DNA from: Rhynchobatus australiae | Taxonomy: Eukaryota | Reading direction: 5' to 3' | DNA: 64,000 nucleotides | Assembly: GCA_034780895.1 (NCBI GenBank) | Contig: JAUZTB010000088.1 | Location: 336,274-400,273 of the forward strand | Shown: positions 1-59,961 of the stretch, one piece after another | Layout of the letters: the number at the start of each line of letters is the position of its first letter | Position numbering within the stretch: position 1 is the stretch's first letter | Notes under the pieces: model-generated | Databases searched by the model: none | The model's input: the letters and a program-made list of their open reading frames with translations, nothing else | What the model was told of the DNA's origin: nothing | Translations under genes and position numbers: made by a program

Positions 1-120
1 TGTTGCACCAACACGTTTATTTATGGGGTGACTCAGTCCAGGTTCAGAGAGCAGTTCATCAACGCAGCGAAATATCCAGTCACCTTAATTATTCGATTTA
101 TAAATAAACAAAATAGCTGA
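1..120 (+). CDS. 3' end (TM7 + C-tail) of GPR139-like GPCR copy A, truncated by the window edge
   Basis: Frame 1 reads CCTNTFIYGVTQSRFREQFINAAKYPVTLIIRFINKQNS* (TGA 118-120). This nearly matches the C-terminus of the intact copy (CCTNTFIYGVTQSKFREQFLNAAKYPLTLIIRLIKK). The upstream part lies outside the window, so intactness is unknown. Confidence 0.85.
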   Translation, partial: CCTNTFIYGVTQSRFREQFINAAKYPVTLIIRFINKQNS

Positions 121-263
121 GTTCCACCCAGGGACTGGTCGCCGTGAGAGAAGCACAACACAGGAGCAGAACCCTCAGCACACGTCGGCCGCGCCCACCA
201 CCAACCAGGCTTTTCAAAACTGAGCCTACTCTTTTATTTTATTTCCTCCATATTTCCCTCGGC

Positions 264-333
264 CGCACCGGGCAAACTGCGGGTGTGGTTCTGACAGCAA
301 CCGGCGTTCTGTACTGTTTCAAAACTATCCCCG
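264..333 (+). pseudogene. Orphan ICL2/TM4 fragment of a GPR139-like gene
   Basis: Reads RTGQTAGVVLTATGVLYCFKTIP, homologous to RTEKIAAVVLTTSGVMLCLKNIP (8114-8183) and CTGKTAVVVLISTSVLFCFSNVP in the intact copy. Confidence 0.7.
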
Positions 334-479
334 TTCTCCGTTCTCTGCCGCTCCCCTGCTGCGATCCACCTTCTACCCAGCGTCAAGGTCTGCTCCGCCA
401 TTCTATCATAGTTGATCCGTTTCTCAACCTCAATGTCCGGCCTTCTCGCAGCAACCCTGAGCCCCGATACTGAGAAAGA

Positions 480-1890
480 GCTAGTCAGTCTCCACCTTTA
501 ATACACCCGATGACTGGGCCACCACAGTGGTCCGTGGCAACATATTCCACAGTTACTCCACACTCATTGAAGGATTCCCACCCCACCCCCCCCCATCTCA
601 GTTCAAAAGGGACATTACTTAATTCTAACAAATGTGCCCTCGGAACCAAGACTTTCCTTTCTCCATCCGGTAGGTTTCAATGAGATCCCTCCACATCCTT
701 CTGAACTCCCTCGAACTCAGGCGCAGGGGCATCAAACAGCTCCTGATACGTTAAGCCGTTTGGACCTCTGATCATTCTGGTGAACCTCCACTGGACACCC
801 TCCCGGTCCAGCACACCCTTGCTTCAATACCGGGCCAAAAATTGCTCATCATGCGCCAAATGTCATCAGACCAACGATTTCCAGAGCCTCATTGGTGCAT
901 TGTTGTTTTTTTTCTGTTCGTTTCGAAAAGCATGCCAACATTGCATTTGTCTTCTTTGCTACCGATTCAATCTGCAAGTTAACCTTGAGGGAATTATGAA
1001 CCAGGACTCCCAACTCCCAATGAATGTCTGATTTCTGAATTAGCTCCCCATTCGGAAAATAGCCAACATATTCTTCCTTTCAAAGTGCATAAGCCCACAC
1101 TTCCATGCTCTGTATTCTATCTGCCACTTCCGTTCCCACATTGTGAACCTCTCAAAGTCCTTCTGCAGACACCTTGCCTCCGCGAATCCACCTCTCCCTC
1201 CACCTATCTTGTTATCGTTTCCACACTTGGCCACAATGTCATCAGTTCCTTCATCCTGATCGTTAACGTACAAAGCGAGAAGCTGCAGTTCGTACACTGA
1301 CCACTGCGGAACTCCACCAGTCACCGGCAGCCATCCTGAAAAATACCTCTTTATGCCGACACTCTGACTTCTGCCAGTCAGCCAATCTTCTGTCCATACT
1401 CGTACCTTGCCTGTAACATCATCAGTTCTGATCTTGTTTCGCAGCCGTGTGTGAAGCACCTTGTCAAAATCCTTCTGAAAATCCTAGCAAATAACATCCA
1501 CCTACTGTCCTTTGTCTAACCTGCTTATTGCCTGCTCAAGGAATTAAAACAGATTTATCGGGGAAGATATCCCATGAAGGAAACCCTGATGACTTCGTTC
1601 GCTTTTACCATATATTTAGAAATTTCATCCACAATATTCAACTCTGTAATCTCCCCAACCACCAAGGTCAGGCTTAAAGGCCAATAATTTTCAGCCTTTT
1701 GATTCCCTCCCTTGTGCCAGCGGTGTTACGTTTGATATTGTCCATTCCTCTGGGATGCTCGCTGACTGCAGGGATTCTTGAGACATCACTACTTAATGCC
1801 CCACAATTCCACAGCGATCTCTTTCAGATCCCTGGGGTGCAGGCCATCTGGTCCAGGTGTCTCATCCACCTTCAGGCCTTCTGGCCTCCC
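480..1890 (-). mobile_element. Decayed CR1-clade LINE (RT region and 3' part)
   Basis: ORF 1040-1459 has W..DWLTGRSQSVGI...SGWLPVTGGVPQ.SV and 'KCGNDNKIGG' (degenerate FADDTKIGG), followed by KWQIEY...KC..MHF. These are typical CR1 ORF2 motifs. Confidence 0.85.
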
Positions 1891-1899
1891 CAGCACCTA

Positions 1900-2950: not shown

Positions 2951-2954
2951 GGGT

Positions 2955-6631: not shown

Positions 6632-8731
6632 ATGGGCAGAGAAAAGTACTACAGTGTGGAGAAAATACTGTACGTGATCGTTGCCGTCACTGGTCAGTGA
6701 ACGGAGTAAGTCATGTTTTGTATCTCCACGTGTTAACCTGCGTACACCTGTTCATGACCCCGTTACTTCTGATCCTTGTACAAAACTACATCAGTGATGT
6801 CGATCCTGTCAATTCAGTTTTCTGATTTTTTATTCTCGTTTCCTGGCACCGAAACGAAACGTCTTTTTGCTCTAACTCACGGGATCCACTCGACTGTTTA
6901 TTTATTTATTTAATTGCAGCGTGGAAACAGGCCCTTCCGGCCCAACGAGTCCACGCCGCCCATTTTTAAACACCAATTTAACCTACCGGTACGTCTTTGG
7001 AATGTGGAAGAAAACCGGAGCACCCGGAGGAAACCCACGCAGACTCGGGAGAACGTACAAACTCATTGCGGACCGCGGCGGGAATCTAACCCGGGTCTTT
7101 GTCGCTGTAACAGCGTCGTGTTAACCACTACGCTACCTAACCGCCCCATTTGATGTTCTTGCTTAAGTGACCCCTTGCCCAGTGTTTTCCCAGTGCTCGG
7201 GACAGGCACTCCTCCGGGAAGGTGTGACTGGTAGGGTTTTACATTGCGTAGTTCACTGTTACTGAGTTATTAATCAGAGTGAACACCTGATCCTGTGGAC
7301 ACACCTCACGGTGGAGTCTGTCACTGGCGAATTCCACTGTCTCTTGGTCAGATATTGGGTACGATCACCTTAATAAGAGTCCACGGATCTACCGGAGTGT
7401 CATTATCGAACTGTAGTCACCGTGGAATGAATCCATTAACGGAGCCACCCTGCTGCCGGATCCCTGCCTTCCCTCTGAATCCTTCCTCGGTCCCATCAGA
7501 TGCTGAGTTTCCAGGACATTAAATCTGTGAAACCGGCTCGATCAGAGACTGTAACCAGGATTAATTGTTACAACAGTCGTTCCACCTCTTTCAGCGGATT
7601 GCAGCTCGCTTTCTCCCGACTGTTGAACTCACCCTTTAATTTATCACCTCACTACTGAAGCACCCAGGTTGGACACGGTTGGATCCGTGTCTGATGTGAT
7701 CAGGTTTGCAGCCACGTCCCCACTCCCAACACTCCTGATCTTCAGCAGAAACCGAAGCCGGAGCTCTGACCCAAGGATGTGTTCAGTAATGCCCAGTGTC
7801 TGCTGTCTTCTCTCTCTGGGGTGAATTTACTGGCAATTTGATCCTGTCCCGGGGAAAGTGCGGCCTCTCCACCTGCACCACTCGCTACCTAGTGGTCATG
7901 GCAACGGCGGATCTACTGGTCATTGTCACTGAGGTCATTTTGTATCAGATCAAATATTGTTACTTTTCGTTGAGTTTTTTGGACATCACCCCTGTGTGCA
8001 GCGTTATTCATGCACTGAAGCTTTCATCGACAGACTGTTCAGTCTGGTTCACCGTCACTTTCACCTTTGATCGATTTGTCGCCATTTCTTGCCAGAAGCT
8101 GAAAACAAAATATCGTACCGAGAAAATTGCGGCTGTGGTTCTTACAACAAGCGGCGTTATGCTGTGTTTGAAAAACATTCCCCGCTACTTCGTACGGGAA
8201 CCCAGAGAGACAATTGATAACGTACCGTGGTTCTGTGTACTAATGGAGTGCTATTAGACTGACCCCGGGTGGATGGGATATGATTGGTTCGACACAGTTT
8301 TAACTCCGCTGCTCCCTTTCACTGTAATTCTGCTGCACAGGGCTCTGCCAGTCGGGCACATCTTAGTGGTCAGTCGTGTCCGTGAGGGGCTGAGGGGTCA
8401 GAGCAACGGGGAGAACCGCAGTGACCCGGAGATAGAGAGCAGGAGGAGGTCTGTGGTTTTATTCTTCACCCTCTCCGGCATCTTCATCCTCTTGTGGCTG
8501 ACGGTGGTTGTAAATTTATTCTATTATCGGATCACAGGAATAGGAGATGCCAATGACACTCAGTGGATCTTCAACTACGTTGTGGTTTTGCTGAGAAATT
8601 TGAGCTGCTGCACGAACACATTTATTTACGCGGCGATTCAATCCAAGTTCAGGGAGCAGGTGAAGAGCGCGGTGAAATATCCGCTCACCTCAGTGTTTCA
8701 GTTCATTCGTAAAACCGCCCCCCACCCATGA
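6632..8731 (+). pseudogene. GPR139-like GPCR pseudogene copy B (exon 1 6632-6692, exon 2 7822-8731)
   Basis: Exon 1 reads MGREKYYSVEKILYVIVAVT-G|gtcagt. Exon 2 reads VNLLAI.ILSRGKCGLSTCTTRYLV...DRF...NTFIY...KYP. Lesions are an acceptor AG changed to GG (ctgggg|tgaat at 7821), a 1-nt deletion (ATT-TGATC, about 7838) and a premature TAG at 8255-8257. Confidence 0.9.
6897..7148 (-). mobile_element. tRNA-derived V-SINE (HE1-like) with CR1-type 3' tail, in the intron of copy B
   Basis: The reverse complement shows an A-box (tagcgtagtgg), a B-box (ggttagattcc), the V-domain gtttgtacgttctccc...gcgtgggtttcctccgggtgctccggttt, the tail gggccggaagggcctgtttcc and (aaat)n. Confidence 0.85.
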
Positions 8732-9478: not shown

Positions 9479-9479
9479 C

Positions 9480-10200
9480 TGTGGAGGGAAGAGAGAGAGA
9501 GCGGGGTGAGAGGGGGAAGAGGGAGGACTGCTATGGGAGAGAGAGGGAGAGTTGTGGAACAGAGGTGGGAGTGTGAATGGGGATAGAGGAAGACGTGTCG
9601 AGCAGAGGAAGGAGTGTGATGGCTTGAGAGGGTGAGCAGAGAGAGGACAATGTGCAGAGTAGAGGGAGAAGTGCGATGGTGAGAGAGAGAGGGGAGACAG
9701 GGAGAGGTGAAGTGCAGAGGGAGGAGTGCGATGATGAGAGAAGGTGTCGATCAGAAGGACAAGTGCAATGGGGAGAGGGGGAGTGGTGTAGACCTGAGGG
9801 AGAAGCGTAGAGCAGAAGGAGGGTGCGATGGGGAGAGGGGGAGTGGNNNNNNNNNNNNNNNNNNNNNNNNNNNNNNNNNNNNNNNNNNNNNNNNNNNNNN
9901 NNNNNNNNNNNNNNNNNNNNNNNNNNNNNNNNNNNNNNNNNNNNNNGCGTAGAGCAGAAGGAGGGTGCGATGGGGAGAGGGGGAGTGGTGTAGACCTGAG
10001 GGAGAAGCGTAGAGCAGAAGGAGAGTGCGATGGGGAGAGGGGGAGTGGTGTAGACCTGAGGGAGAAGCGTAGAGCAGAAGGAGGGTGCGATGTGGAGAGA
10101 TGCGGTTTGCAGAGCAGAATGATAAAGAGTGCGGGATGACACAGAGGGCCGGAAAGGAGGCGAGAGAGGGTGTGGGAGGGATCGCCGCGGTATGGGATTG
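9480..10200. repeat. GA-rich low-complexity intron with a 60-bp tandem repeat flanking the gap (9765-10095)
   Basis: The unit gcgtagagcagaaggagggtgcgatggggagagggggagtggtgtagacctgagggagaa appears on both sides of the N-run. Confidence 0.9.
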
Positions 10201-11352: not shown

Positions 11353-11516
11353 GAATAGATCTTCCACCATGTCAGGATTCACTGAGTCATTTCAGCTGTT
11401 GCACGAACAAGTTTATTTCCACGGTCACTGAGTCCAAATTGAGGGAGCAGGTGAAGCGCGCGGTGAAGTATCCGGTCACGTCATTGCTTCAGTTCATTGA
11501 TCAGGCCGCGTCCTGA
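11353..11516 (+). pseudogene. GPR139-like 3' fragment copy C (TM7 + C-tail)
   Basis: Reads ...LSHFSCCTNKFISTVTESKLREQVKRAVKYPVTSLLQFIDQAAS*, and the following 3' flank aligns with that of copy B. The 5' part is missing. Confidence 0.85.
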
Positions 11517-12284: not shown

Positions 12285-13140
12285 ATATTTGGTGGTGCTG
12301 TGGATAGTGTAGTAGGTTGCTGTAGATCGCAACAGGATATTGATAGAACGCACAATTGAGCTGAGAAGTGGAAGATGGAGTTCAACCAGGAATAGTGTGA
12401 AGAAATACACTTCGGGAGATCGAATTTGAAGGCAGAATGCTAGGTTAACGTCGGGATCTTGAATGATCTTGGATTCCACGTTGATAGATCCCTAAAAGTT
12501 TCAGCGCAGGTCGATAGGGTTGTTAAGAACGCGAATGTTGTGTTGGCCTTCATTCGTCGGGCTATTGAATTCAAAAGCCGCGAGGTAATGCTGCAGTTCT
12601 ATAGGACTCTGCTCAGCCCACACTTGGAGTATTGTGTTCAGTTCTGGTCGCCTCATTACAGAAATTATGTGGAAGATTTAGGAAGGGTGCGGAGAAGATT
12701 TACCAGGATGTTGCACGGATTTGAGGATGTGTTTTATGAGCATAGGTTGAGCGATATTGGGATTTTCTCTTTGGAAGGAAGGAGGATGAGAGGTGACTTG
12801 ATAGAGGTGCACAAGACAATAAGAGGCATAGATCGAGAGGGCATTCAGAGACTTTCTTTTTTCCGAGGATGAAAATGGCTGACACGAGAACATTTCTCAT
12901 TTTCATTCTGGGAAAAACAGGTCAATATTTAACGTGATTCGAGGAAGGTATAAGGGGGAATGCAAGAGCTTGGTACTTTACATAGAGAGTGGTGGGTGAG
13001 TGGAACGCACTGCCGGCAGGTGTTGTGGGGCAGATCGATCAGGGACATTTAAGAGACTCTTAGATAGCCACATGAATGACAGAAAAATAGAGGCCTGTGC
13101 GAGAAGGAAAGGTGAGACAGATCTTCGATAGGTCCAAGAA
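12285..13140 (+). mobile_element. CR1-clade LINE 3' fragment (relatively well preserved)
   Basis: ORF 12459-12872 reads DLGFHVDRSLKVSAQVDRVVK...HLEYCVQFWSPHY...RRMRGDLIEV. Confidence 0.9.
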
Positions 13141-13164
13141 CAAGGTCTTGCGCTCCAAGAACAG

Positions 13165-13570
13165 AACCAAGGTATTGGTCACGGCAGGTTGTCATGTGAT
13201 GTAGAAAGAAACGTTTTTTTTTCAGACAGGGCATAAAGCTTGTCGCCCCTAAAACCGTAGCTGCAGTTTCCTGCTGCAATATTTTGTTTACAGCAGCGGG
13301 CAACAAATGGCGACAAATCGATCCAAGGTGAAGGTGACGGTGCACCAGACAGAAGAGTGCGTGGCTTCAGAAGACAGCACGGGGATAACGCTACACACAG
13401 TGGGATGTGCAAGAAAGAGCCTGTGAAATAATGATAATTGTTCTGAAACAAAATGACCTCAGTGACAATGAGCAGTAGATCCGCCGTTGCTATGGCCACC
13501 AGGTTGTGAGTGGTGCAGGTGGAGAAGCCGCAGTTTTCTTGGGACAGGATCACAATCGCCAGTAAATTCC
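13165..13570 (-). pseudogene. GPR139-like pseudogene copy D (exon 2, TM1-ECL2 only)
   Basis: Reads NLLAIVILSQENCGFSTCTTHNLVAIATADLLLIVTEVILFQNNYHYF..., then a frameshifted W.TVTFTLDRFVAI and PWFC. The acceptor is decayed and the copy is truncated by the CR1 at 12285-13140. Confidence 0.85.
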
Positions 13571-17104: not shown

Positions 17105-19130
17105 ATGGGTCGGGATCTGGAAACAGTCAACTGGGATGTGACAGCTATCAGGAAGAGTGTCTTTTACTTTACTGACAATATTTTCTGTGTAATTCTCAGT
17201 TAAAATGGTATCATCGCATCTATTACTTACTCCGGACTATTCAGGCGGTCTACTATCCCATCCTCGCCCTTGTTGAAGTTCCAGGTAAGTGTCAGTGCAA
17301 ATGCACGACCAACAAGCAGGTGAGATGCAGTATTTAAGGGATCTGAGAAAGATGTGTGATAAGTGGACAAGCACTTACATTTTCCTGTTATTGATGCTGA
17401 AAGTCCTCACTGACTATGCTTCGGTTGCGCGAGGTATACCTGGTCCGTGGATGATGTTTATCGACTGGATATTTGTCCTTCATTTCTCCAGGTTGTTTCT
17501 GTCAATATTGCAAACAGGTTCACAACAACTTCCATTAATGCAGTCAACAATTGCTAACTGCATTACGGTTCCTGTAATTCACATTATCCTCACTGTGGCC
17601 GTGGGTCTGTTGATTTGAATTAGGCCGTCAGGATTGTCCTCTGCAAACGGTAAACTGATTTTATTCTATTGCTCATGATCTCATTTCATTCTTGCGAAGC
17701 TGGTAGTTTCCAATCACCTCCATCCTCCTCCCGAGAACTACGTGCGGCTGAGTCAGAATTTTCCGCCGAGGACCCAGACCATCTTCACGCCAATATCGAG
17801 AGTGGCTGCGTGATAATCCTGACGGAAACATGTGATGACCTACACGCACTGGAATAGATCACCGAGCAATGGTCAGAATCAGAAACCTTCACTGATTTAA
17901 TGCACGGGCAAGGTCAATGTATTACCAGTTCCTTCACTGAAACTCAGTCAGTGAAGACTTTTGAGATTTATAAACTTGAACACCTTATGTATTGTTCATT
18001 TATCAGACATCTTTAACGGACCCGAAACCTCTTGTTCTCAGCTGCTGATCGAGGTGATGCAGTTATTTTAGAGTTAAGGTTGATTTTTCAGAATTATAAT
18101 CGCTGTCTACGGCAGACAACACCGGTACCAGATAAAGTATCCGCCAACTATGAATCCAAGAACAGTTTGTACAGTTGATTTATCTCTGTGAACTTGCGGT
18201 CTTCTCTCCAAGTCGGTTGTCATGTTTTCGTTCATTTCCCTCGTCACAGTGAAAGCGCTGATCATTGTGGTCCTGTGCCGGGGAAAGGGCGATCTATCCA
18301 GAGGCGTCACTCGGTACCTTGTTGCGAGTCGGATCAAATGCTCGTGGTCCTCGATCTGACATTGAGGCAGATTCAGATTGCTTATCGGGAGGAATTTCGT
18401 TTCCTAAATGCTATCCCAGTGTGCGACATCCACGCCGTCCTACATTATGCAGCCACCGACTGTTCGGTCTGGTTCACCGTCACTTTCACCTTTGATCAGT
18501 TTGTGGCCATTTGTTGCCAGAAGCTTAAACCTAAATATTGCACCAAGAGAACGGCGGCAGTCGTCCTGGGGACTGTGACTGTGCTCAGCTGCTTAAAAAA
18601 AAACATTTTTTTGGTAGTTTATACTCAGCGGCGGTTAACGTTTGCATAATGTCCCGTGGTTTTGCATGGGCAGAATGTTTTTTCGTGAGTTCGCTGGCTT
18701 GGACTGTAGTCGAGTTCCTCCATTACGTCCTCACGTCTGTGATCCCATTTGTCTTCATACTCCTGCTCAATGCTTTGACCACCAGGCACGTGTTATTGGC
18801 AACCAGAGCTCTCAAGTGGTCCCAAGAGTGGGGAGAATCCCAGAGACACGGAGATGGAGAGTCGCAGAAATTCCCTTTTTTTACTGCTGGTCATCTCGGG
18901 CAATTTCATCCGGTTGTGGGCGATAATTACGGCGTATCGTATGTAAGACCGGCTGTGTGTTTCCAATAATTTGGATACTACGAGACCTGTTGGCTACATT
19001 CGGGAGCTGGGTGACATGCTGCAGCTGCTGAGCTGCTGCACAAGCACGGCTCTTTACGCCGTGACCCAGACTAAGGGAGCAGCTGAAGCAGCTGGTGAGA
19101 TCACCCCTCTCTTTCGTTGTAAAATGCACT
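17105..19130 (+). pseudogene. GPR139-like pseudogene copy E, long-exon-1 subfamily (exon 1 about 17105-17284, exon 2 from 18250)
   Basis: Exon 1 ends LRTIQAVYYPILALVEVP-G|gtaagt and has an internal frameshift. Exon 2 after cacag reads VKALIIVVLCRGKGDLSRGVTRYLVA.../LHYAATDCSVWFTVTFTFDQFVAICCQKLK.../VIPFVFILLLNALTTRH.../LSCCTSTALYAVTQ, with several frameshifts. Confidence 0.88.
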
Positions 19131-19289
19131 CAGCGTCGACGTCCCGAGGTATCTCTGCTCCCTCCATCTAATCCGCTTCATAATCCCTCACTCCCCAACT
19201 TTCCGCGGAGCTGAACCTGCAGCGAAGCTCTCCTGGGTATTTGTGACCCCTTCCTTACCCGGTCTCTCAACCTGTTCCCTCCATTCGCC

Positions 19290-30497: not shown

Positions 30498-30589
30498 AAA
30501 TCATCACCAAATGGCGTGCTGTTAAATCATGATGGCCACAGACCAATATAACCTCTTGAGCCACGGAAATGAAAGTGTTGATCATGTAT

Positions 30590-37200: not shown

Positions 37201-38114
37201 TCAGACATTTTGTATTTTTTTAATCAATCGAATAATTAAGGTGAGCGGATATTTCGCTGCGTTGAGGAACTGCTCTCTGAACTTGGACTGAGTCACCCCA
37301 TAAATAAATGTGTTCGTGCAGCAATTTACAGTGATCAACATCAAACCACACTGTTCCCATATGTACTCGTAAAAGTTATAGTTCTTGGTATCCACTCCGG
37401 CAAATGTGTAGTAAAGGAATTCGACAACTGTAACCGACGACAGGAGGATGAAGCTGCCGGAGATGGTGAAGAGTAAGATCACAGACCTCCTCCTGCTCTC
37501 CATCTCTGGGTCACTGCGGTTCTCCCCCTTGTTCTGACCCCTCAGCCCCTTACGGACACGGCTGGCCACTAAAATGTGTCTGACTGTCAGAGCGTTGAGC
37601 AACAGGATGAACACAAATGGGAGCAAAGGCGTTCGAACGGTATCCAGCCAATCATATCCCACCCATCCGGGATCCGTGTAGAGGCTCGTCTTCGAAATGC
37701 AGTCCCAGGGTACATTGTCGATCACCATCCTGGGTTGATATATAAAGAAAGAAGGGACATTGCTGAAACAGAACAGAACGCTGGTTGATATCAGAACCAC
37801 AACCGCAGTTTTCCCGGTGCAATATTTTGTTTTCAGCTTCTGGCAACAGATGGCGACAAACCGATCAAAGGTGAAAGTCACGGTGAACCAGACAGAACAG
37901 TCGATGGCTGCCAATCCCAGGACAGAGATAACACTGCACACGGGGGTGATGTCCAGGAAAGTCCCAGGGAAATAATAATAACTGATCCGCCACAGTATGA
38001 CGTCAGTGACGATGGTCAATAGATCCGCCATTGCCATGGCCACCAGGTAGCGGGTGGTGCAGGTGGAGAGGCCGCACTTTCCCCGGGACAGGATCACAAT
38101 CGCCATGGAATTCA
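37201..38114 (-). CDS. Exon 2 of the intact GPR139-like class A GPCR (copy F)
   Basis: A polypyrimidine tract and cccag acceptor precede 914 nt open to TGA. It has a 7TM pattern with AMAMADLL (TM2), C3.25 in PVCS, FTFDRFVAIC (DRF), LLPFVFILLLNALTVRHI (TM5) and NCCTNTFIY (TM7), resembling GPR139/GPR142. Confidence 0.93.
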
Positions 38115-40706: not shown

Positions 40707-40773
40707 CAGGAACACCAATAACGGCAATGTTCAAGTAAAATATTTTCGTGATACTGTAAAATGTGGCAAGCAT
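40707..40773 (-). CDS. Exon 1 of the intact GPR139-like GPCR (copy F); spliced product 326 aa
   Basis: Reads MLATFYSITKIFYLNIAVIGVP-G|gtaaga, and this phase-1 donor matches the phase-1 acceptor at 38115. The intron is 2592 nt and the exons total 67+914=981 nt. Confidence 0.88.
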
Positions 40774-43799: not shown

Positions 43800-45435
43800 G
43801 GTGAAGCGCAAAGTTAAAATTCAGCTACAGCTGGTGCTAACGAGGCCAGTGGTGTGGTGCTCTTTCTGCAGAGGATTCTTGTACAAGATGCAATTGTACA
43901 GGATTTTCATTGTATTGCAGACCTAAGGAAGGATAAACTTGCCTTGAAGCCTCTGCAGCGCAGTTCACCAGGTTGCTTCCTGTGACAAGAGGCTCATCCT
44001 GTGAGGAGATATCAAGTACAGTTGGCCCAGACTCACTGGAGTTTGGGTGACTCCCATTTAAACACAGGATCCTGAGTTGGATTGACAAGGTTTCCATTTG
44101 AAAAGCTCTCGCTGTGACAGCAAAGACCAGAGCAAGAGTGTTTTTCTGGGTCAGCCACTAGTAATTGAGATGAGATATTTCTTACTGTAGAGGGTTGTAG
44201 GTTTTTGAATTCTCAGTCCCAAACCATATAGGAGGAGGACATCTTGACCCGTGAGATGACACTGGCAGAGCGTCCCCCATTAATTTCTCTCAAAGGGTTG
44301 GGGAAGGCTGTCTTTGAGTACATTCAAAACAAATTTTTGGACACCAAGTTAATCGAGGGATAAGGGTATCAGGTGGACTAGAGGAAGATGTGATCTCGTT
44401 GAATGTTGGAGCGGATCGATGAGTCAGTGAAGCTTGCCCTAGCTTGAAGGATCTTGCATCTATTCAAGCTGGCATCGTAAGTGCGGCTAATATGGATGTG
44501 GAAATGTGAAGTCCAGGAAAATTAAGGGACTCTTCTGAGATTGGAGTTAGAGTACGATCTTCTCTCTATGTCTGACCTCAAGCCGAGGGAGGTTTAACAA
44601 TATTGGAGGTGTTATACGACTTAAGTTGATGTTAATATGTGAGTGAATAGCTTATTCTGAATCTAGCATTACATTCTAACTGCCCTGGTAAATGATTGAG
44701 GGAAAATTTAACCAATGGCTCAGAATAGAGGAGGGAACCAAGTTAGTTATTTATCCACCTGTCTTGCCTTTAGAGGCAATACAGAAAATGCTGGAAACAC
44801 TCAGTAGGTCAGGCACCATCTGTGGAGAGATGAGATCTGTGGATGTTTTTAGGTGAGGAGCTTTCGTTAAAGGTCTTCAACTGGAAAACGAACCCTCCTC
44901 TGAGCAGGGATTGAACACTTCCAACCTTTTCTGCTTTTGTTTCAGACTGTCACTCTCCAAGGAGTCAGCAGCAGAAATAGTTAAGATGTGGAAAATTACA
45001 GACCGCTCAGCTAATTACAGAAACAACATGGCATTGCTGAGGTTTCTTTTTGTTTAGGATCACATGAATTGGCCATTTGACCTGACAAGTCATTCAGTTA
45101 CTAATAGAAGCTCTAACTTCATTCAGATTCACTAGAATGACAGTAGGGCTTAAAGGGTTTAATTAGGAAGACAGTTTGCACAGTCTGGGCATGTACAGGC
45201 TTGAGTGTAGAAGATGGTGATTGAGCTGGGGTCTCTAAGATGGTGCAGAGACTTGATTTGGTTTTACTCTTTTGACCCAAACCTCTAAAGTGTAGGAAGC
45301 AAGGCCAAGCAAATACAACCCTAATATGAGAACCCAGCCTCATCGGGGCAATTTCAGGAAGTGTGTTCTTCACATAACAGTCGATATCTGGTACTTTGCA
45401 CTCAAGTACACTGCTGATGCCAGGGATCAATTGAA
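43800..45435 (+). mobile_element. Old CR1/L2-type fragments
   Basis: Contains ttgccttgaagcctctgcagcgcagttcaccagg, aaacaggatcctgagttggattgacaagg and caggaagtgtgttcttcacataacag, which are CR1 3'-type sequences. Confidence 0.55.
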
Positions 45436-45973
45436 AATTTGAGGACAGAGGTTAAACAGGACCCAGGGGTCGGACATCAGTTTTTTGATTGTCTGGTAAG
45501 TAAACTGGGAGGTTGGGGAGCCTGGTTAGACAAAATTGCAACGGCTGTGGGTATAACATTGTTTATGTCTGCATTTATTCTGTGCTGTTCCCTTCCACTT
45601 TTCAAGTCCTTTCCAGTGCGGACTGCAGTGAAACAGTTTCCGATGCTTCTGGCAAGGGCTGCGATCAACAATCCTGAGAAGGAAGTTGCAACAACATACT
45701 TCCATGATCTGGCTCAGGGGATATGCCGAAGGAGGACGACGACGATGCGTATATTGGGAATAGGTTGTGAGGGCCTCAGGGTCTTTTATCCCGTCTCCGT
45801 CACAGAGGGATATGTTTTTGGCCCTCTCGTTCAGGACATGAAGGTTGAATTCATGGGACTTGTGCACGAAAAGGACATCATCGCTGTTTTTAGGATGATT
45901 GGCTTTAGTCTTTTGGTGTCGTGCGCCTTGAATTCCCTCTCTAAGTGAGACCATTCGGTCTCAAAGAGGGAAA
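45436..45973 (+). mobile_element. Endogenous retrovirus remnant: env TM C-terminus and 3' UTR/PPT
   Basis: Reads LRTEVKQDPGVGHQFFDCLVSKLGGWGAWLDKIATAVGITLFMSAFILCCSLPLFKS...KQ. This is the Trp-rich MPER, membrane anchor and CC.LP pattern of fish (epsilon-like) ERV envs. The PPT aaagagggaaa is at 45963-45973. Confidence 0.75.
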
Positions 45974-47902: not shown

Positions 47903-47990
47903 GGCTCGTTGGTCTAGTGGTATGATTCTCGCTATGGGTTTGAATTTCCGATCGTGCGAAAGGTCCTGGGTTAAAATTCCGGATGGGCCT
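47903..47990 (+). tRNA. tRNA-Pro(TGG) with a 16-nt intron at position 37/38; probably a pseudogene
   Basis: GGCTCGTTGGTCTAGTGGTATGATTCTCGCTA-TGG-G[TTTGAATTTCCGATCG]TGCGAAAGGTCCTGGGTTAAAATTCCGGATGGGCC matches the vertebrate tRNA-Pro body. U33 is changed to A, the B-box GTTC to GTTA, and there are stem mismatches. Confidence 0.85.
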
Positions 47991-48034
47991 CTGTTTAAAA
48001 TATCACCTCACCATTTTGGTCTCGGCGATGAAGG

Positions 48035-49149: not shown

Positions 49150-50460
49150 CTTTTTTTTAACACTTGCCGTCCAGGAGGTAATTTGTCCTCTAATAAAGGC
49201 CTTAAGAGCATCCCATATAATAAGACTGGAAGTCTCTTCCAGCTTATTCTCTTAAAAAAAATATTTTGTTTCTCCAAAAAATGTATTTAATGCATAACAA
49301 AGTTGGATTAAAACGCAAAAATCTGTTTGTTTGAGGAAGTTGAAAGAGTGAAACACATGAGAATGATCTTAACGAGCAATCCCTTTGTATTCAGAAGATC
49401 GAACTGATGGGATCATTTGGCTAATAATAAAAATAATCAATCCTGGAATATGTATGGTGAACATGAGAAAAAAAAATACTCCCCATGTTCTGGATGTAAA
49501 AAATACGCCAAGCACCAGTAAAGCCAGATGTCATTAAAATTTTTGACTAAATAAAGCTGATTTATTGAGAGCAGCTGGTTTAGAAGATAGCCTATCTAAT
49601 CTTGAAAATAGTCAACAATTAAATTCTCCTCCTATGATTAAAGAATAGAGATTCAAATCTGGCATGAGTGAAAAAATCGTTAAAAGAAATCCTGGGTCCT
49701 CCATATTCGGGGCATAAATATTGGCAAGAACCACTAATTCATTATCTAATTTTCCTGACACTATAACAAAACGTCCTTCAGTATCAGATATTACCTTGTG
49801 TTGAACAGATGATACTGTATTGTCCATAAAATTGAAACTCAACCTCCCTTTAGATTTTGCTCGGAAAGAGGAATGAAATTGCAATACTCTCCATCGACTA
49901 AAAAGTGTGAGTTATCAGAATTACGTTTTAGAGTTTATTGTAAAAATAAATTAATTAATTTTATTTTTTATAAAGTTTATTAATTTCGGCAAAATCTTAT
50001 TTCATTTCACTCTGTGTTTTAACCTTTTCACGTTAAAACAAAGTAGATCAATAGTTTGATACATTTTAATATTATTCAGGTGCAGTTAAAAAAGAGGTTA
50101 ACAAACAGACCATAATGGAATGTAAATTAAAACCAGACAACGAGCTTTCAGATAAGGTAACCAAGCAACAGACTCGGCTGTGAACCCAAAACAGCTTCCA
50201 AAGAAGGAATCCATCTTCCATCCAATCACCCAAAGACAGAAAGCCGACGAATAGACAGCCAGCAGCGAAAGATACAGAAAACGTCCCTCCCAAAAGAAGT
50301 CCTGCTTTTTTGTTTCAAGGTTACATAATTCCACCCCAGTTAAAACAGCGAATTGAAAAAAATCCGATTTCCAAGTAATAAAATGATGTATCCGTACTAA
50401 GCCTTTTTAATAAAGTAAAAACCTCAAAACTCTATGAAATAAAACATTTTAAAAATCAAA
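49150..50460 (-). mobile_element. L1-clade LINE fragment: inter-ORF spacer and ORF2 endonuclease
   Basis: ATG at 50064 gives MYQTIDLLCFNVKRLKH.VK. Further on it reads FHSSFRAKSKG, VISDTEGRFVIVSGKL....VVLANIYAPN, LIIGGEFNC and WDALKAFIRGQI. The coding strand is A/T-rich. Confidence 0.88.
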
Positions 50461-50464
50461 AAAA

Positions 50465-54159: not shown

Positions 54160-54298
54160 ATGTTCTGGGGTGTTTTCTGGGCTGCGGGATTTATTTTATC
54201 GGATGATCCTTCGATATCCGTAAATGATCGGATCGTCTCTTTACTCATGACTATTCAGCCGGTATATTTTCCGATCCTCGCATTTGTTGCTGTTCCAG
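54160..54298 (+). CDS. Exon 1 of GPR139-like copy G (long-exon-1 subfamily); status unknown
   Basis: Reads MFWGVFWAAGFILSDDPSISVNDRIVSLLMTIQPVYFPILAFVAVP-G|gtaagt. It is 139 nt, phase 1 and open. Confidence 0.75.
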
Positions 54299-55437
54299 GT
54301 AAGTCCCTGTCCAACGATTCGAACAACAAACAGATGAGGAGCAGCGGTCATGAGACCCGGTAACGAGGTCTGCTGGGTGGACTGTTCATGACGTGTTCCG
54401 GTTAATAAAAGCAGAACATCCTTACTGGCTGAGCTGCGGTTGAGGGAGATGCCAGACATGGACCTGGTACGTGTGCGGGGGTCAACGCAGAATGTGGCGT
54501 TTATCTCCGTGTTCCCATCATTCGTTTCTCGAGTTTCTCTTCTCGTGTTGCTGAAACTTCCCCAACTACATTTACGTTTTTTCCATCAACCATTGCTATC
54601 TGCAATGCCGTTCCTGTAATTCACGCTCTCCTCACTGCTGCCGTGTCTGGCGACCCTAGCTGTTAGAACTATCTGCGGCAATCAGTCAACTGATATCGTT
54701 GCACTAATCATGGTCCAATTTCTGTCATAATCCTCTGGTAGATTCCCACCGCCTGAATCCCTCTGCCGGGCACTAAATGCGGATGAATCAGACTGCTCCA
54801 CCGGGGACCTGAGCAAATTTCACCAGTCTCCCGTGTGGCTGCATCATGTTCCCAACCAGTAGCAGGTGATGGCCCCGACACAGGGCGCTGGCTCACAGGT
54901 TACAAAATCGAGGGAGAACCCTCTGCTGATACATCCACAACTGACATAGTCGCTGCATAGAGAGCAGGAAGAGGGACCGGGTCTCCAACCTGCACCGACT
55001 CCGGGTCACAACAAAATGATCAGCGACGCTCTCACAGAGCACTGAGCAATGATCAGGATCAGGAGCCTCGGCTGAATCCGCACAATAACTAGGTCAATAT
55101 ATCACCTCTCCCTCAACCGAAGATCAGATACTGAGGACTTTGATCTTTATTAACAGGAACACGGAATGAATTGTTCACTCGACGTACATCTTCGCCGGAC
55201 CACGCACCCACCACTTCTCACCTGTCTGTTGGTCGAGGTGATGCCGTTATTTTCCAGTTGCTGGTTGATTTCACTGATCTACATTCCCCATCTCCAACAG
55301 ACTACCCCTGTGTGGGGGACAACCACCTCCAACTCTGAATCCAAGAACAGGTTTCTGCATTTGATTTCCCTCTCTGTGAATCTGCTGACGTTGATCCTGC
55401 CCCGCTGTCATGTTTGTGTTTATTTCCCTCCTCACAG

Positions 55438-55476
55438 TGAACGTGCTGACGATTGTGGTCCTGTCGCGGGGAAAGT
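55438..55476 (+). CDS. Start of exon 2 of copy G, cut by an assembly gap
   Basis: After cctcacag it reads (V)NVLTIVVLSRGK, then N x100. The remainder of the exon is absent after the gap. Confidence 0.75.
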
Positions 55477-55779
55477 NNNNNNNNNNNNNNNNNNNNNNNN
55501 NNNNNNNNNNNNNNNNNNNNNNNNNNNNNNNNNNNNNNNNNNNNNNNNNNNNNNNNNNNNNNNNNNNNNNNNNNNNGGTGTTTCCCTAGGAAAGTTCTGA
55601 CCATCTGCTTAATGATCTACATGTTCCCGCACTCGGGCTAGAGGCAAAAGAGGACCAGCGACCATATTAAGAAGACCAGCGGCTACCTTAAAGACACCGA
55701 CAACCATTTTAAACACTGAGCAGACTATGAATAAAAAAAGTGTGCAGTCTATTTTCTACAGTCTCTATTATATATATTC

Positions 55780-55977
55780 TATACCAGGAGCCAAAGTAAA
55801 CACGAAGGTTGTCCAATACTCTGGCAACTAGTGCAAGAGAAACCCTGGTACTTATGCTAGGCCCCTGATGGGGCTCAGATGTGTGTCATTACGCATTCAG
55901 TCCAGCATGGAATCCATGTGCTGTACAACAAGGCACAAAAGCTGCCAAATCAATGGCTGGTACTCAGAACCATGACA
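55780..55977 (-). mobile_element. LTR related to the Gypsy element at 28831-30497 (partial or solo)
   Basis: The reverse complement starts TGTCATGGTTCTGAG and shares ccatgctggactga, tgagcccatcaggggcctagcataagtacc and tactttggctcc with those LTRs. It may extend to the gap at 55577. Confidence 0.8.
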
Positions 55978-56049
55978 CCTTCTTGAGATCTTTTCCAGTT
56001 TCTTTATAATCACTAAGGACTCTGCTTGATTAGAGCTTCCTGAACCTGC

Positions 56050-57235
56050 CATAGAACACAGAACATAGAAGACAGCATAGTACAGGCCCTTCGGCCCACA
56101 TGAGCTGCCGACATTTTATCCTGTTCTAAAATCTATCTAACCCTTCCCTCCCCCATAACCGCCTATGTGTTTATCATTCATGTGTCTATCTAAGAGTCTC
56201 TTATATGTCCATAATCTATCTGCCACCAGTACCTCTAAAGGCAATGCGCTCCACGGACACTCCACTCTCCGTGTAAAAAAAATCTTACTCCTGACATTCC
56301 CCTGAGATCTTCCCCCAATCACCCTAAAATTATGTTCTGTCGTGTTAGCCATTGTCGCCCTGGGTAAAGTTGTGGTCTGTACACTCAATCAATGCCTCTT
56401 GTACACCTCTATCAGGTCACCTCTCATCCCCTTCACTCAAAAGAGAAAAAAACCTCGCTCACTCAACCTCTCATAAGACATGCTCTGCAGTCCATGAAAA
56501 ATCCTGGTAAATCTCCTCTGCAACCTCTCCAAAGCTTCCACACCCTTCCTATAAAGAGGCGACCAAACAGAACACAATACTCCAAGTATGAACCAAATAG
56601 AGTCCATTAGAGCTGTAACATTACCTCGCGTCTCTTGAACGGAAGCCCCGACTAATGAAGGCCAAAACACCATTCGCCTTCCAAGCAACCCGATCGACCT
56701 GCCCTGCAACGTAGAGGGATCTATGCACGTGAACCTGAAGATCCCTCTGTTCCTCCACACTGCTAGAAGACCTTCCATTAACCTTGTATTCTGCCTTCGA
56801 ATTCAATCTCCCGAAGTGTATCACTTCACACATGTTCGTGATGAACTCCATCTGCCACTTCTCAGCCCAGCTCTGCATTCTGTCATTATCCTATTGTAAT
56901 CTACAGCAACTTTCTTACACTATCCACAATACCACTAACCTCTGTATCATCAGCAAACTTACTAACCCACCCTTCCACATCCCATCCAAATCTTATTTAA
57001 AATCACAAAGAGCAGGGCCCCCATAACAGATCCCTGTGGAACACCACTGTTCACCGACCTCCAGGCAGAACACCCTCCATACACCAGCACACGCTGTCTT
57101 CTACGTGCGAGCCAATTCTGAATCCACGCAGCCAAGTTTCCCTGAGTACCGTGCCTATTTACTTTCTGAATAAGTCGAACATGAGGAACCTTACCAAACG
57201 CCTTACTGAAATACGTGTACACCACATAAACTGTT
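56050..57235 (-). mobile_element. CR1 LINE 3' part (RT to tail), relatively young
   Basis: Contains FSKAFGKVPH.RLIQKV, WIQNWLARRRQRV, SGVPQGSV, WAEKWQMEF and an (ttcta)-type tail. Confidence 0.9.
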
Positions 57236-57750
57236 CGACTTCGATCGGAGGACTGGAGTTTGAGGAGATTTGGTATCACATCAGTGGGTCTTGTAAATGT
57301 CTCTGGATGAAGAAGGAGAACATTCGCACTGTTTGCTGTACCGGGGGCTCCAATACACAGGATTAAAAGAGGCTGCAGCGGGTTGTGGAGTCAGCCAGTT
57401 CCATCAGCGGAATAACAACATACCACCCCACCATCGAGGATATTTACAAGAGGCGGTGCCTGAAGAATGCGGCATCCATCACTGAAGCCTCACCATGCGA
57501 GAAATGGCGTTTTCGTTCCAACCATAAAGGAGTATGAAGACCCTCACTCAACGATCCAGGAACGGCTTCTTCCCCGAGATCAGCAGATTTCTGAACGATC
57601 CATGAACGCTATCCGATTGTTGATTAATTTGTACTATATATTTATTTCATAAATACTAGTAGTTTTATGCATTTCAACTGTACTGCTGCGGCAAAACAAC
57701 AAATTGACGGCATAACAGGTGGTGATATGAAGCTGATTCTGATTGTGAAG
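57236..57750 (+). mobile_element. Rex1/Babar-type LINE 3' fragment
   Basis: Reads TIEDIYKRRCLKNAASI and ends with a tail of gctgattctgattg type. Confidence 0.65.
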
Positions 57751-57759
57751 ATGCGTGGG

Positions 57760-58835
57760 ATGCACCTTGACTTGGACGCTCGAATTCAGAAGTGGCTTGC
57801 CCATAGCATACAGAGGGTACTGGTCGATGGTATTTAATCTAGTTGCAGTTTTGTTATTGTCGCTGTTCCCTTGGGACCGTATTGGGACGTCCACTGTTTG
57901 TGATATGTCAAAGTAACCTCGGTGAAAATGCTGATGGGTGAGTTAGTAAGTTCACAGACGATACAGAGATTGGTGGTGTTCTGGATTTTGTAGAAGATTG
58001 ACAAAGGTTACGGTGTTACAGATACGTCAGTTACAGATATGGGCGGAAAATTGTCAGATGGAGTTTAATCCGGCCACATGATGGTTGTTGCACTTTTGGA
58101 GATCAAATATAAAGTGACTGTACCCTGTTAATGGCAAGATCGTCAACAGTGTTGATTGACAGAGATATCTTGGATATCCATAGCTCTCTGAAAGTGGCTG
58201 CACAGGTCCATCGGTTGGCAATAAGACGCATGGCATGTGTCCCTCTAATAGTCTAGGCACTGAGTTCAAGAGTCAGGATGATATGACTCTGCTGTTTGAA
58301 ACTCTGGTCAGGCCGCATCTGGAGTATTATATTCAATTCTGATCGCCCCGTTGCTGGACGGATGTGGAATATTTGAAGAGGGTGCCCAAGTTCCAGGCTG
58401 CTGCTTGGATTAAGGGGCGTGTGCTGCTGGGAGATTTTGGCCAAACTTGGGTTGTATTATCTGGAGCGTCGGAGTTTGAAGGGAGAACTGACAGCAGATT
58501 ATAAGAGTATGAGAGTCACAGATAGAGCAAACAGCCGGTATCTTCTTCCCAGGAAAGATCTGTCTGATACCAAAGTATATGCCTTTCAGGTGAGAGAGGG
58601 CAAATTCAAAGGAGACGTGTGTGGCAGGTGTTTTCACACAAGAGGGTGCTGGGTACCTGGATTGCTCAGTCGGTTGTGGCGTTATGAGGAAAATACGCTT
58701 GGGGCACGTCGATGTACAGAGAATGGAGGATTACGGACATTGTGTTGGCAGAAAAGATCAGGTTGGTTAAGCATTTAAAAACTTCTTTAATTCGTCCGGA
58801 ACAACATCATGGGCGTTCCTGTTCCTGTGCTGTAC
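57760..58835 (+). mobile_element. CR1 fragment
   Basis: Contains SKFTDDTEIGG, LVRPHLEYY.QF and LERRSLKGEL. Confidence 0.8.
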
Positions 58836-59254
58836 CTTGTTTTCCGACCGAGGTCTTTGGATCTATGAATTCACACCTCAAACAGCGTAAAGTAATTCTG
58901 CCGAGAAGAACCGACTTCAGATCATTCAAAGTCAAAGTCAAGGTGAAGTTTATTGTCAGATGCACAACGACACGAACGCACAGCTGCAATGAAGAAACGT
59001 ACTTGCAGTCGCATCACAGGCACATGGGGTGAGATAAGGAGCAGTCTCAAATTGAACAATTTAAACATTAATGAAACACAATTTGTTTAAGGAAAAAAAA
59101 AACTGATTCATAACAAAACAAAGTCAAAGATTTGAGACAATATTCCTTCCAGTTCACAATTCCAGGGCCGATTCTGCCTGTTCAACCCAGTGTGTTTGGA
59201 GTGGGAGAGATAGATTCACCCAGTTTATTTTGATCACATGAATAATCCCGTTTC

Positions 59255-59961
59255 ATACAGGAGTCAAAGCTGAAAAGCCACAACATGATGAAATTCCCCG
59301 ATACGAACAGCAGTAAAAGGAGGGATTTCCTGCGGCTCTAAAAATATGGAGATCTCGGACTTTTCCTTTTGCTCGGACCCCGGAGTCTCTTGCGGGCTCC
59401 GTAAACCAATAAAACGTGCCTGATTGTTGATACATTGAACAGAAGAATGAAGTCAAACAAAATCACAGTGGTCACGGCGGAACGGACAATCGCAATCGCC
59501 GCCCACATGAGAAAAATAATCAACTCGTATCTTTGAACACAAATTCATCGTACATTATCCGAAGTATGAGTGTCTTGGACCATGAAAAATCAGAAAATGT
59601 TCTTTAAATAGCTCAGCGCAGTGACACTCACCAGAACAACAGCCGCAGTTTTCTCGGTGCAATATCTCTTCTTTTTTCAGATTCTGGCAGCAAATCGCCA
59701 AATATCGATCAAAGGTGAAAGTGACGGTGAACCAGACAGAACAGTAGATGACGGCGTAAAGCAGGAGAGTGTGGGTTCTGTGCACGCAGCCGTAATCCAG
59801 GAACGCGAAAGCATCCGGAACAGCAGTCGATATCTTCCTCTGGATCAGGTCCAAGAAAACGACCAGTCGATTCACCGCTGCCATGGCCAACAGGTCGCCT
59901 GTGACGCCCTGAGAGAGACTCTTATTTCTCCGGTGAAGGACTATAATCATCAGCACGTTCA
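59255..59961 (-). pseudogene. Divergent GPR139-like pseudogene copy H (exon 2, TM1-TM6)
   Basis: After tcgcag it reads VNVLMIIVLHRRNKSLSQGVTGDLLAMAAVNRLVV...CSVWFTVTFTFDRYLAICCQNLK/ (frameshift) ...ILLFNVSTIRHVLL..ARKRLRG.../SRRKSL...SGNFIMLW. TM7 was not found and exon 1 was not identified. Confidence 0.85.

Follow-up and report, generated by a model that had tools for sequence, protein, structure and literature searches.

The TAAR, FPR, and MRGPR families are class A receptors that arose from single-ligand ancestors and now form clustered, fast-turning sets of genes with variable binding pockets. Nematode srw genes arose from the protostome RFamide/Wamide receptor group, an expansion that includes the MIP/sex-peptide, proctolin, FMRFamide, and myosuppressin receptors. 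That group is described as the sister group of GPR139/142 (PMC8557429), and GPR139 is reported to have two exons and to be 70% identical between zebrafish and human (PMC7318219). The lowest numbers of chemoreceptor genes are attributed to cartilaginous fishes (mean, 43.8), in which 20 to 62 olfactory receptor genes are known when OR, TAAR, V1R, and V2R are taken together (PMC10869828); a paucity of GPCRs has also been described for them (PMC8455134). Here, we analyzed a 64-kb stretch of DNA, referred to throughout as “the window,” in which a birth-and-death array of GPR139-like receptors had been predicted. We propose that the window covers a portion of one tandem gene cluster within a receptor repertoire of elasmobranchs, from a family that has more than 100 members in one shark genome under a misleading automatic name.

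Nine loci derived from this family lie within positions 1 to 59961, six on the plus strand and three on the minus strand (Table 1). Searching the window with 345 family proteins (tblastn) revealed no further copy, and the reversed window, used as a control, gave 0 matches; the exon-2 stub of copy H was missed by tblastn and recovered with blastn/nhmmer. The original prediction of at least eight copies plus a fragment, on both strands, agrees with this total but reaches eight plus one only if remnants are counted, with four of the nine loci (B, D, E, and G) retaining at least 70% of the main coding exon and fragments a and b each spanning fewer than 50 codons. It was right that most are pseudogenized: one locus is intact (E), four are clearly broken (B, C, D, and G), a further two are fragments, and the remaining two are truncated, A by the window edge and H by an N gap. 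Thus, one of the seven loci decidable for intactness is intact, and six of all nine are dead or fragments.

Table 1. Receptor-derived features of the window
Feature	Positions	Strand	Description
Copy A	1..120	+	TM7, helix 8, and stop (118-120); subfamily 1; remainder left of window
Fragment a	267..335	+	~23 codons, ICL2-TM4; blastn E 4e-16 versus gene E; 73% aa identity
Copy B exon 1	6632..6692	+	20 codons + 1 nt; TM1 motif end shortened; exon-1 profile match
Copy B exon 2	7822..8731	+	Full-length subfamily-1 pseudogene; 74% DNA identity to gene E
Fragment b	11382..11516	+	TM7-helix 8 remnant; 3' flank resembles that of copy B
Copy C	13131..13570	-	5' half of exon 2 (TM1-ECL2); subfamily 1; 3 frameshifts, 1 stop
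Copy D exon 1	17140..17284	+	Subfamily 2; longer N-terminus; frameshifted; approximate start; canonical GT donor
Copy D exon 2	18250..19140	+	Full-length subfamily-2 pseudogene; 5 frameshifts, 3 stops
Gene E exon 2	37201..38114	-	Intact; from codon before N1.50 (TM1) to stop
Gene E exon 1	40707..40773	-	ATG, 22 codons + 1 nt, GTAAGA donor; exon-1 profile E 1.4e-6
Copy H exon 1	54160..54298	+	Subfamily 2; open 46-codon frame; canonical donor
Copy H exon 2 start	55438..55476	+	Canonical acceptor; rest lost in 100-N gap 55477-55576
Copy G exon 2	59248..59961	-	Subfamily-2-like pseudogene, TM1-TM6; 1 frameshift, 3 stops

The visible part of copy A has no lesion and shares 84% identity with a protein from Mobula across 38 aa; its 3' flank is 78% like that of gene E. 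Copy B has a GG acceptor, one frameshift near 7840, and a stop at 8255-8257. No exon 1 was found for copy C, and no confident one for copy G. The best relatives of copy D are subfamily-2 shark proteins, and copies D and H can be aligned over ~1.75 kb that runs from the upstream DNA through exon 1 and the intron. A phase-1 intron ahead of N1.50 occurs in copies B, D, E, and H. Conserved TM motifs had been predicted for the array and are present, but not in every copy: E carries an exact TM3 motif, which can still be recognized in B, C, D, and G, and the TM7 motif is present in A, B, and E. Retroelement debris lies between the copies. Rfam and ARAGORN returned nothing for the window, the low-threshold ARAGORN output being noise.

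That the broken copies are mostly assembly or sequencing errors, in a local array that is mostly functional or mis-joined, is very improbable. The 64 kb include five gaps of 100 N, and homopolymer runs host some of the frameshifts in D and G; however, in-frame stops and further lesions occur in each of B, C, D, and G, the splice acceptor is altered in B, and the copies are only 66 to 80% identical and therefore not haplotype duplicates.

The predicted 326-aa protein, the product of gene E, exists, but only as an open frame obtained once the two exons are spliced across a 2592-nt, phase-1, GT-AG intron inside TM1. We take the intron of GPR139 to lie at the same position as that of the shark and ray family. 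The gene E product matches Pfam 7tm_1 at 70.6 bits (cut-off, 30.5), and its best solved-structure match by sequence is human GPR139 (32 bits, E 7.7e-7). It carries Ser at 6.48, encoded at 37440, where all 108 of 108 subfamily-1 relatives have Trp; the only intact gene of the window has lost the otherwise invariant W6.48, which counts against the repertoire explanation that we favor below.

The family belongs to the class A (rhodopsin-like) GPCRs. All 60 of the 60 aligned members matched 7tm_1, and the core motifs of the class (N1.50, D2.50, C3.25 with the ECL2 Cys, D/E-R3.50, P5.50, N7.49, and Y7.53) are 97 to 100% conserved. An AlphaFold2 model of one relative, P0006 (pLDDT 76.5), has seven long helices and helix 8. 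Foldseek gave TM values of 0.6 to 0.7 to peptide receptors and ranked GPR139 10th, not separated from other peptide receptors, so this comparison shows the fold only. We rejected the known vertebrate chemoreceptor families (OR, TAAR, V1R, V2R, T1R, and T2R): the olfactory, V1R, and TAS2R Pfam families had no match among 60 members at E≤0.01, and position 3.32 is hypervariable and not Asp. Nematode srw was likewise rejected, with Pfam 7TM_GPCR_Srw found in 2 of the 120 matches listed and in 0 of 60 scanned members.

Far from having few genomic copies, which the original prediction had named as evidence against itself, the family comprises 2498 proteins at E≤1e-10. Among the 120 matches listed, the 119 that are named are all from sharks and rays. 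The horn shark, Heterodontus francisci, contributes 105 distinct proteins of the 239 matches listed, 104 of which remain distinct after merging at 97% identity, and the nearest neighbor is of the same genus for 206 of the 239 listed proteins (58 expected). A single 74.5-Mb scaffold carries 24 of the 62 listed Heterodontus subfamily-1 matches. The family is therefore, as predicted, large and clustered, with lineage-specific birth and death, and annotated only as “probable GPR139.”

Such turnover could also mark genomic drift, that is, a duplication-prone, repeat-rich unit of little function with most copies on their way out, a reading that we consider quite improbable and that is already largely refuted for the family. 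The single intact locus among the seven decidable ones would fit drift, as would the debris separating copies and the spread of Heterodontus members across at least 17 scaffolds of more than 20 Mb. The dN/dS of gene E versus copy C (0.69; 0.40 to 1.04) points the same way, but that of E versus B is 0.37 (bootstrap, 0.26 to 0.50), which argues against a neutral repeat. Moreover, shark and ray sequences of subfamily 1 are 67 to 77% identical, 144 columns are at least 90% conserved across 108 relatives, and variation is concentrated in the pocket, a pattern that drift would not produce. Pocket codons were saturated in one window pair. The intron is kept, so the copies are not retrocopies, and a retroposed or transposon-borne repeat was rejected on the grounds that intron and flanks are duplicated with the gene and that dN/dS is low; the neutral repeat with dN/dS near 1 that the original prediction had allowed for is at odds with selection that is purifying overall.

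Gene conversion of the intracellular half is a lead only. Synonymous differences between E and B number 19 of 122 at inner versus 29 of 52 at outer positions, and at four-fold sites 11 of 63 versus 8 of 23 (p=0.14); the contrast reaches p<0.05 in two of nine other pairs. Across 56 Heterodontus paralogues, inner and outer distances are uncorrelated (rho, -0.01 versus 0.27 for random splits), and linkage decay with distance is no stronger than in orthologue controls.

Descent from GPR139 or GPR142 themselves, as originally predicted, is not supported. Human GPR139 scores 67 bits on the family profile, the next solved structure 43, and two unstudied single-copy vertebrate receptors 186 to 198 (clade X, 186 to 189; clade Y, 193 to 198, the highest of any sequences not in the family); four proteins that belong to neither X nor Y, three of which also lie outside vertebrate-labelled clades, score 117 to 128. 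GPR139 is the top PDB match for the family, X, and Y profiles alike (67, 98, and 67 bits). The bamboo shark keeps one gpr139 and one gpr142 gene of its own (PMC13689627, supplements 3 and 6), and the human GPR139/142 orthogroup holds just these two bamboo shark genes, with at most three genes per species, in supplement 6 of the same source. The family resembles GPR139/GPR142 in its two exons and its best solved-structure match and differs in identity (21% between one member and 7VUG, human GPR139, by structural alignment) and in agonist-site residues. Of the six positions of the GPR139 agonist site (E3x32, F3x33, H5x43, W6x48, R6x51, and N7x38), W6.48 alone is kept family-wide, and 3.32, 3.33, 5.43, 6.51, and 7.39 are not conserved, which speaks against the L-Trp/L-Phe pocket that the original prediction implied. 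Orthology to GPR139/GPR142 fails on identity, agonist-site residues, and orthogroup membership.

These scores place the closest relatives in two other orphan lineages, not in GPR139/GPR142 themselves. In a tree built without true GPR139/142, the shark and ray expansion is sister to amphibian clade Y (SH-aLRT 99.6), and clade X falls apart from it together with P0376 (SH-aLRT 99.8). Clade Y consists of amphibian single-copy “probable GPR139” genes (14 proteins listed from 14 species, including P0349 of Pleurodeles and P0489 of Xenopus), ~30% identical to gene E; it shares W6.48 and the ICL3 DPE motif with the family but has one protein per species among the matches listed, a near-invariant pocket (0.03), and a conserved P6.50. 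To our knowledge, clade Y has no assigned function. Clade X comprises jawed-vertebrate single-copy “probable GPR139” genes (Latimeria P0353, Scyliorhinus P0396, teleosts, amphibians, turtles, and squamates), with neither mammal nor bird among the 120 matches listed. It occurs in sharks alongside the expansion and, unlike the family, tracks the species tree, has a conserved pocket (R6.51, E2.61, and Q5.42), and lacks W6.48. Clade X is possibly the GPR210A/B described in PMC6504862.

As predicted, the extracellular loops are variable (entropy of ECL, 1.41, versus ICL, 0.49 bits; p=2e-6; 108 relatives). We compared mean pairwise differences at 31 pocket, 51 other outer, and 99 inner TM positions, the pocket being defined by generic class A positions transferred through alignment rather than read from a structure. 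In subfamily 1, the differences were 0.54, 0.30, and 0.16, respectively, and 0 of 5000 permutations gave a pocket value as high. The same held within Heterodontus (0.48/0.23/0.13) and within Mobula birostris (0.47/0.27/0.14). Controls showed the opposite trend (83 clade-X orthologues, 0.25/0.37/0.31; 14 amphibian clade-Y orthologues, 0.03/0.18/0.21). Pocket hypervariability was weak among 44 deep representatives (p=0.012), and an earlier entropy test of pocket versus other outer positions in subfamily 1, with TM1 included, was borderline overall (p=0.057; Heterodontus, 0.09; Mobula, 0.011). Within the subfamily-1 pocket, 3.37 (88% Asp), 5.39 (67%), and 5.42 (59%) are acidic and 4.57 is basic (81% Lys), and 3.29, 3.32, 3.33, 6.51, 7.39, 7.42, and 7.43 vary freely. 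As far as sequence can tell, this pattern is the signature of a ligand-diversified repertoire, and the family probably is such a repertoire of some kind.

The predicted repertoire-like variation is thus borne out for subfamily 1 but not for subfamily 2, whose sequences, chosen by similarity to a TM2-TM4 query, have a conserved pocket (0.23/0.30/0.16) that is not hypervariable in TM5-7 either (0.36 versus 0.43); the repertoire signature therefore does not span the whole family. Here D2.57, R2.61, H3.28, D3.37, and K4.57 (100%), H5.42 (96%), and R6.59 (99%) are near-fixed, which would suit a single endogenous ligand, or a small number of them (neuropeptide or metabolite), with genes amplified for dosage or tissue control, as would the single-copy relatives X and Y with their conserved pockets. 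We regard this reading, which fits subfamily 2 best, as improbable for the family; it leaves subfamily 1 unexplained, in which the pocket differs more than the other TM classes even within one genome.

The explanation that we favor for subfamily 1 is a diversified repertoire with one conserved signaling chassis and many differing pockets, as in the TAAR, FPR, and MRGPR repertoires, by analogy. Its ancestor would have been a single-copy GPR139-related orphan receptor, still present in amphibians if the tree lacking true GPR139/142 is a guide. Two-exon class A genes were duplicated at the DNA level together with their introns and flanking sequence, and the copies were then retained or inactivated. 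Each subfamily-1 receptor may bind its own small ligand of polar or charged character (amino acid, amine, or short peptide), given that 3.37, 5.39, and 5.42 are mainly acidic next to a basic 4.57 and other pocket positions vary, and all members would presumably signal through the same G protein.

The most likely use of such a repertoire, proposed tentatively, is the detection of external chemical cues in sensory epithelia, perhaps of the nose, mouth, or skin. In the catshark, nearly all olfactory neurons are TRPC2/Go microvillous cells that express V2R robustly (PMC10116579), so the nose may offer the family little space, and the text of the catshark organ atlas does not mention it. A somewhat unlikely alternative is an FPR- or MRGPR-like sentinel repertoire in immunity or irritant sensing, in which granulocytes, mast-like cells, or somatosensory neurons would sense peptides that signal microbes or damage. 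The hypervariable pocket and the species-specific turnover would fit a pathogen-driven race, MAS1 and relatives are described as absent from cartilaginous fishes (PMC8455134), so that the sentinel niche is open, and peptides with aromatic C-termini are reportedly used by the wider clade (PMC8557429). Against it, chemokine and purinergic receptors score far below GPR139 on the family profile, and a supplement file from a blood-cell atlas (PMC13186322) lacks the GPR139 term, an absence that is uninformative if genes carry LOC identifiers there.

Regardless of the cell type in which it acts, the family appears to rank among the largest GPCR families of elasmobranchs. It is conceivable, if still doubtful, that a GPR139-related orphan, seemingly absent from mammals, built an unrecognized elasmobranch chemosensory family with more genes than OR, TAAR, V1R, and V2R combined. 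If so, it would be a further, independently evolved class of vertebrate chemoreceptors, and the view of sharks as the vertebrates that smell or taste with the smallest receptor repertoire would be overturned. The amphibian single-copy sister gene, with its invariant pocket, would be a clean target for the ancestral ligand. Our literature search, which mainly covered openly available papers, found no description of the expansion, and the 12 of 24 whale shark supplement files that were searched gave no match; some shark supplements may list clusters.

The next look-alikes in the Atlas are protostome RFamide/Wamide-type clusters, and relative to the protostome expansion and srw the shark and ray family would be an independent vertebrate expansion. 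Like the TAAR, FPR, and MRGPR families, it combines clustered, fast turnover with variable pockets (in subfamily 1); unlike them, with which it shares homology at the class A level only, it has an intron in TM1 and no Asp at 3.32.

Six-frame, DNA, and profile searches of the window identified nine loci derived from a single receptor family, on both strands and including two remnants, while the reversed window, used as a control, gave no matches. The originally predicted multicopy array on both strands was therefore recovered. Its description as mostly pseudogenized applies to B, C, D, and G, which are broken, and to the remnants a and b; A and H, cut by the window edge and by an N gap, respectively, could each be intact or broken. 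The gene structure is two coding exons separated by a phase-1 intron that lies directly ahead of N1.50 in TM1, and gene E after splicing encodes exactly 326 aa. Copies A, B, C, and E form one subfamily (subfamily 1) and D, G, and H a second (subfamily 2), with ∼49% identity between the two. Because D and H match over ∼1.75 kb covering upstream DNA, exon 1, and the intron, and the 3′ flanks are alike within the pairs A/E and B/b, we attribute the copies to genomic duplication; retroposition is ruled out by the duplication of flanks and intron along with the genes. Five 100-N scaffold gaps (at 9847, 41811, 55477, 61184, and 62278), one of which removes most of copy H, indicate that the local assembly is fragmented. 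That the broken copies are chiefly an artefact of assembly or sequencing seems very improbable.

Receptor loci and other sequence features of the window
Feature	Position	Strand	State or basis
A	1-120	+	cut by window edge
a	267-335	+	remnant
B	6632-8731	+	stops and frameshifts
b	11382-11516	+	remnant
C	13570-13131	-	stops and frameshifts
D	about 17140-19140	+	stops and frameshifts
E	40773-37201	-	spliced frame open
H	54160-55476	+	cut by N gap
G	59961-59248	-	stops and frameshifts
Direct repeats, ~400 bp, 83% identical	28833-30501		flank chromodomain fragment and tandem repeat
33-bp tandem repeat	29442-29617		between the direct repeats
Chromodomain fragment	29800-30141		between the direct repeats
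LINE debris	12289-13128
LINE debris	22194-22568	-
LINE debris	49615-49911	-
LINE debris	56965-57390	-
Retroviral envelope C-terminal-like open stretch	45418-45945	+	by eye
tRNA-like stretch	47903-47991	+	by eye

Among the other features, the repeat-flanked segment is probably a decayed Ty3/gypsy LTR element. The LINE debris comprises a reverse transcriptase fragment (Pfam RVT_1) at 56965-57390, a copy related to it at 12289-13128, a weak piece resembling SGNH/GDSL at 22194-22568, and, by eye, an endonuclease-like piece at 49615-49911. Pfam gave no match to the envelope-like stretch, and the tRNA-like stretch, perhaps a SINE head, matched nothing in Rfam and was not called by ARAGORN with its default settings. 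In some database protein models of the family (P0048, P0117, P0155, and P0216), extensions match scattered nonreceptor stretches of the window; gene prediction has probably joined LINE fragments to these receptors.

With exon 2 of gene E as the query, 2,498 proteins (90% clusters) were matched at an E value of ≤1e-10; among the 120 listed, the 119 named ones were all shark/ray proteins, nearly all labeled “probable G-protein coupled receptor 139.” Subfamily 2 was retrieved with a piece of copy D (705 matches, the 120 listed all from sharks). The N-termini of subfamily 2 proteins such as P0126, P0144, and P0199 contain a repeat of ∼14 residues that includes an N-glycosylation sequon and differs in copy number. 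A family profile searched against 1.84 billion representatives gave 137 matches at ≤1e-30, many sharing <50% identity with E, which implies many further subfamilies. Heterodontus francisci contributes 105 of the 239 distinct proteins listed (104 once near-identical ones are merged), a lower bound for its genome; judged by the longest contig recorded for each, they occupy at least 17 scaffolds, each longer than 20 Mb, with 24 members on one scaffold. The nearest neighbor was from the same genus for 206 of the 239 (58 expected), indicating lineage-specific blooms. Gene E clusters with proteins of Mobula and of Hypanus (SH-aLRT, 99.1), which makes a ray the probable source of the window. These data bear out the proposal of a large, clustered birth-and-death family under the “probable GPR139” label.

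Genes of this family are already on record in public annotations. Full-text literature searches brought up no paper describing the expansion, with prior mention possible in subscription papers and several supplements outside our reach. Term searches of a catshark sensory atlas (PMC11979771 and its preprint), a chemoreceptor review (PMC12294341), and the accessible portions of a chemoreceptor survey (PMC10869828) and a shark/ray tandem-gene survey (10.1101/2025.06.08.657570) gave no account of it. We conclude that this elasmobranch GPCR repertoire is real, large, and apparently undescribed.

The best solved-structure match is human GPR139, which accounts for the automatic label. On the family profile, human GPR139 scores 67 bits, a distant link, versus 193 to 198 bits for clade Y (single-copy amphibian relatives) and 186 to 189 bits for clade X (relatives that occur singly in species ranging from sharks to squamates). 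A maximum-likelihood tree was built from 58 proteins, which include 23 unnamed deep representatives taken to be shark/ray and lack true GPR139 and GPR142, with an unnamed distant receptor as the root. In it, the expansion groups with clade Y (SH-aLRT, 99.6) and by itself has a support of 83, with clade X separate. In the accessible part of a published orthogroup table, bamboo shark has a single gpr139 and a single gpr142, which fall together with their human counterparts (PMC13689627). Both the scores and these bamboo shark genes argue against GPR139/142 themselves, the originally predicted source of the expansion; it appears related to them yet derived from neither. The implied Trp/Phe ligand fares no better: W6.48 is the only GPR139 agonist-site residue (sites from the accessible part of PMC7318219) retained family-wide, so that ligand is not transferable.

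Extra GPR139-like subtypes, GPR210A/B, occur in coelacanth, gar, and fishes according to a GPCR survey whose accessible part leaves sharks unmentioned (PMC6504862), and clade X may be one of them. Clade X (P0353, P0396, P0433, P0483, and others) is unstudied, with no mammal or bird members among the matches listed; two of its records bear the names of TMEM183A isoforms, which suggests that the gene adjoins TMEM183A. Clade Y (P0349, P0476, and a subset of P0484 to P0503), also unstudied, has one member per species among the matches listed and an almost invariant pocket and, as sister to the shark expansion, would be well suited to a search for the ancestral ligand. P0376 represents a third, unnamed subtype.

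Gene E deviates at 3 of 144 conserved columns, a count biased low by the choice of relatives for likeness to E. One of the three is residue 6.48, Ser where all 108 relatives have Trp, which may reflect variation, decay of the gene, or an error. In an AlphaFold2 model of a close relative, the 7TM fold is normal and ECL2 forms a hairpin; Foldseek groups the model with peptide receptors in general.

Across 108 subfamily 1 proteins (those of 295 to 400 aa out of 120 listed), variability was greater in extracellular than intracellular loops (1.41 versus 0.49 bits), as anticipated, and in outer than inner TM halves (1.42 versus 0.55 bits). In a sharper test, using 31 positions that we take to be generic class A pocket sites, mean pairwise differences at pocket, other outer TM, and inner TM positions were 0.54/0.30/0.16, a pocket-high pattern repeated within single genomes (56 Heterodontus and 15 Mobula birostris proteins). 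In the single-copy relatives the order is reversed (X, 0.25/0.37/0.31; Y, 0.03/0.18/0.21), which also shows that the pocket positions were sensibly mapped. The pocket is conserved in subfamily 2 (82 proteins), and an earlier entropy variant of the test, with TM1 included, was borderline for subfamily 1. Estimates of dN/dS for E were 0.37 (0.26 to 0.50) against the dead copy B, 0.69 (0.40 to 1.04) against C, and 0.50 (0.14 to 2.5; 38 codons) against A, and we regard drift as an improbable account of the family. Between E and B (37201-38114 versus 7822-8731), synonymous differences are far scarcer in the intracellular half (19/122) than in the extracellular half (29/52); gene conversion of the G-protein side is possible, with four-fold sites alone not significant and a linkage test giving no support.

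The family shows a conserved class A chassis and tandem birth and death, with a variable pocket in subfamily 1. We propose that every paralogue would be tuned to its own small polar or charged ligand and that all would signal via one G-protein pathway; a single endogenous ligand is doubtful. Acidic residues at 3.37, 5.39, and 5.42 with a basic 4.57 suggest amino or peptide ligands, and D3.37 and K4.57 could alternatively be a structural pair. Known agonists in the wider clade are aromatic amino acids and amidated peptides (accessible parts of PMC8557429 and PMC12208981). A role as immune or irritant sentinels, favored by the absence of MAS1-type receptors (accessible part of PMC8455134), is somewhat unlikely. 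We tentatively suggest that such ligand-tuned receptors may serve chemosensing of the outside, in favor of which we count the small known chemoreceptor repertoire (accessible part of PMC10869828). The nose in particular is a less likely site, since catshark olfactory neurons, in the accessible part of PMC10116579, are nearly all of the TRPC2/Go type and express V2Rs strongly.
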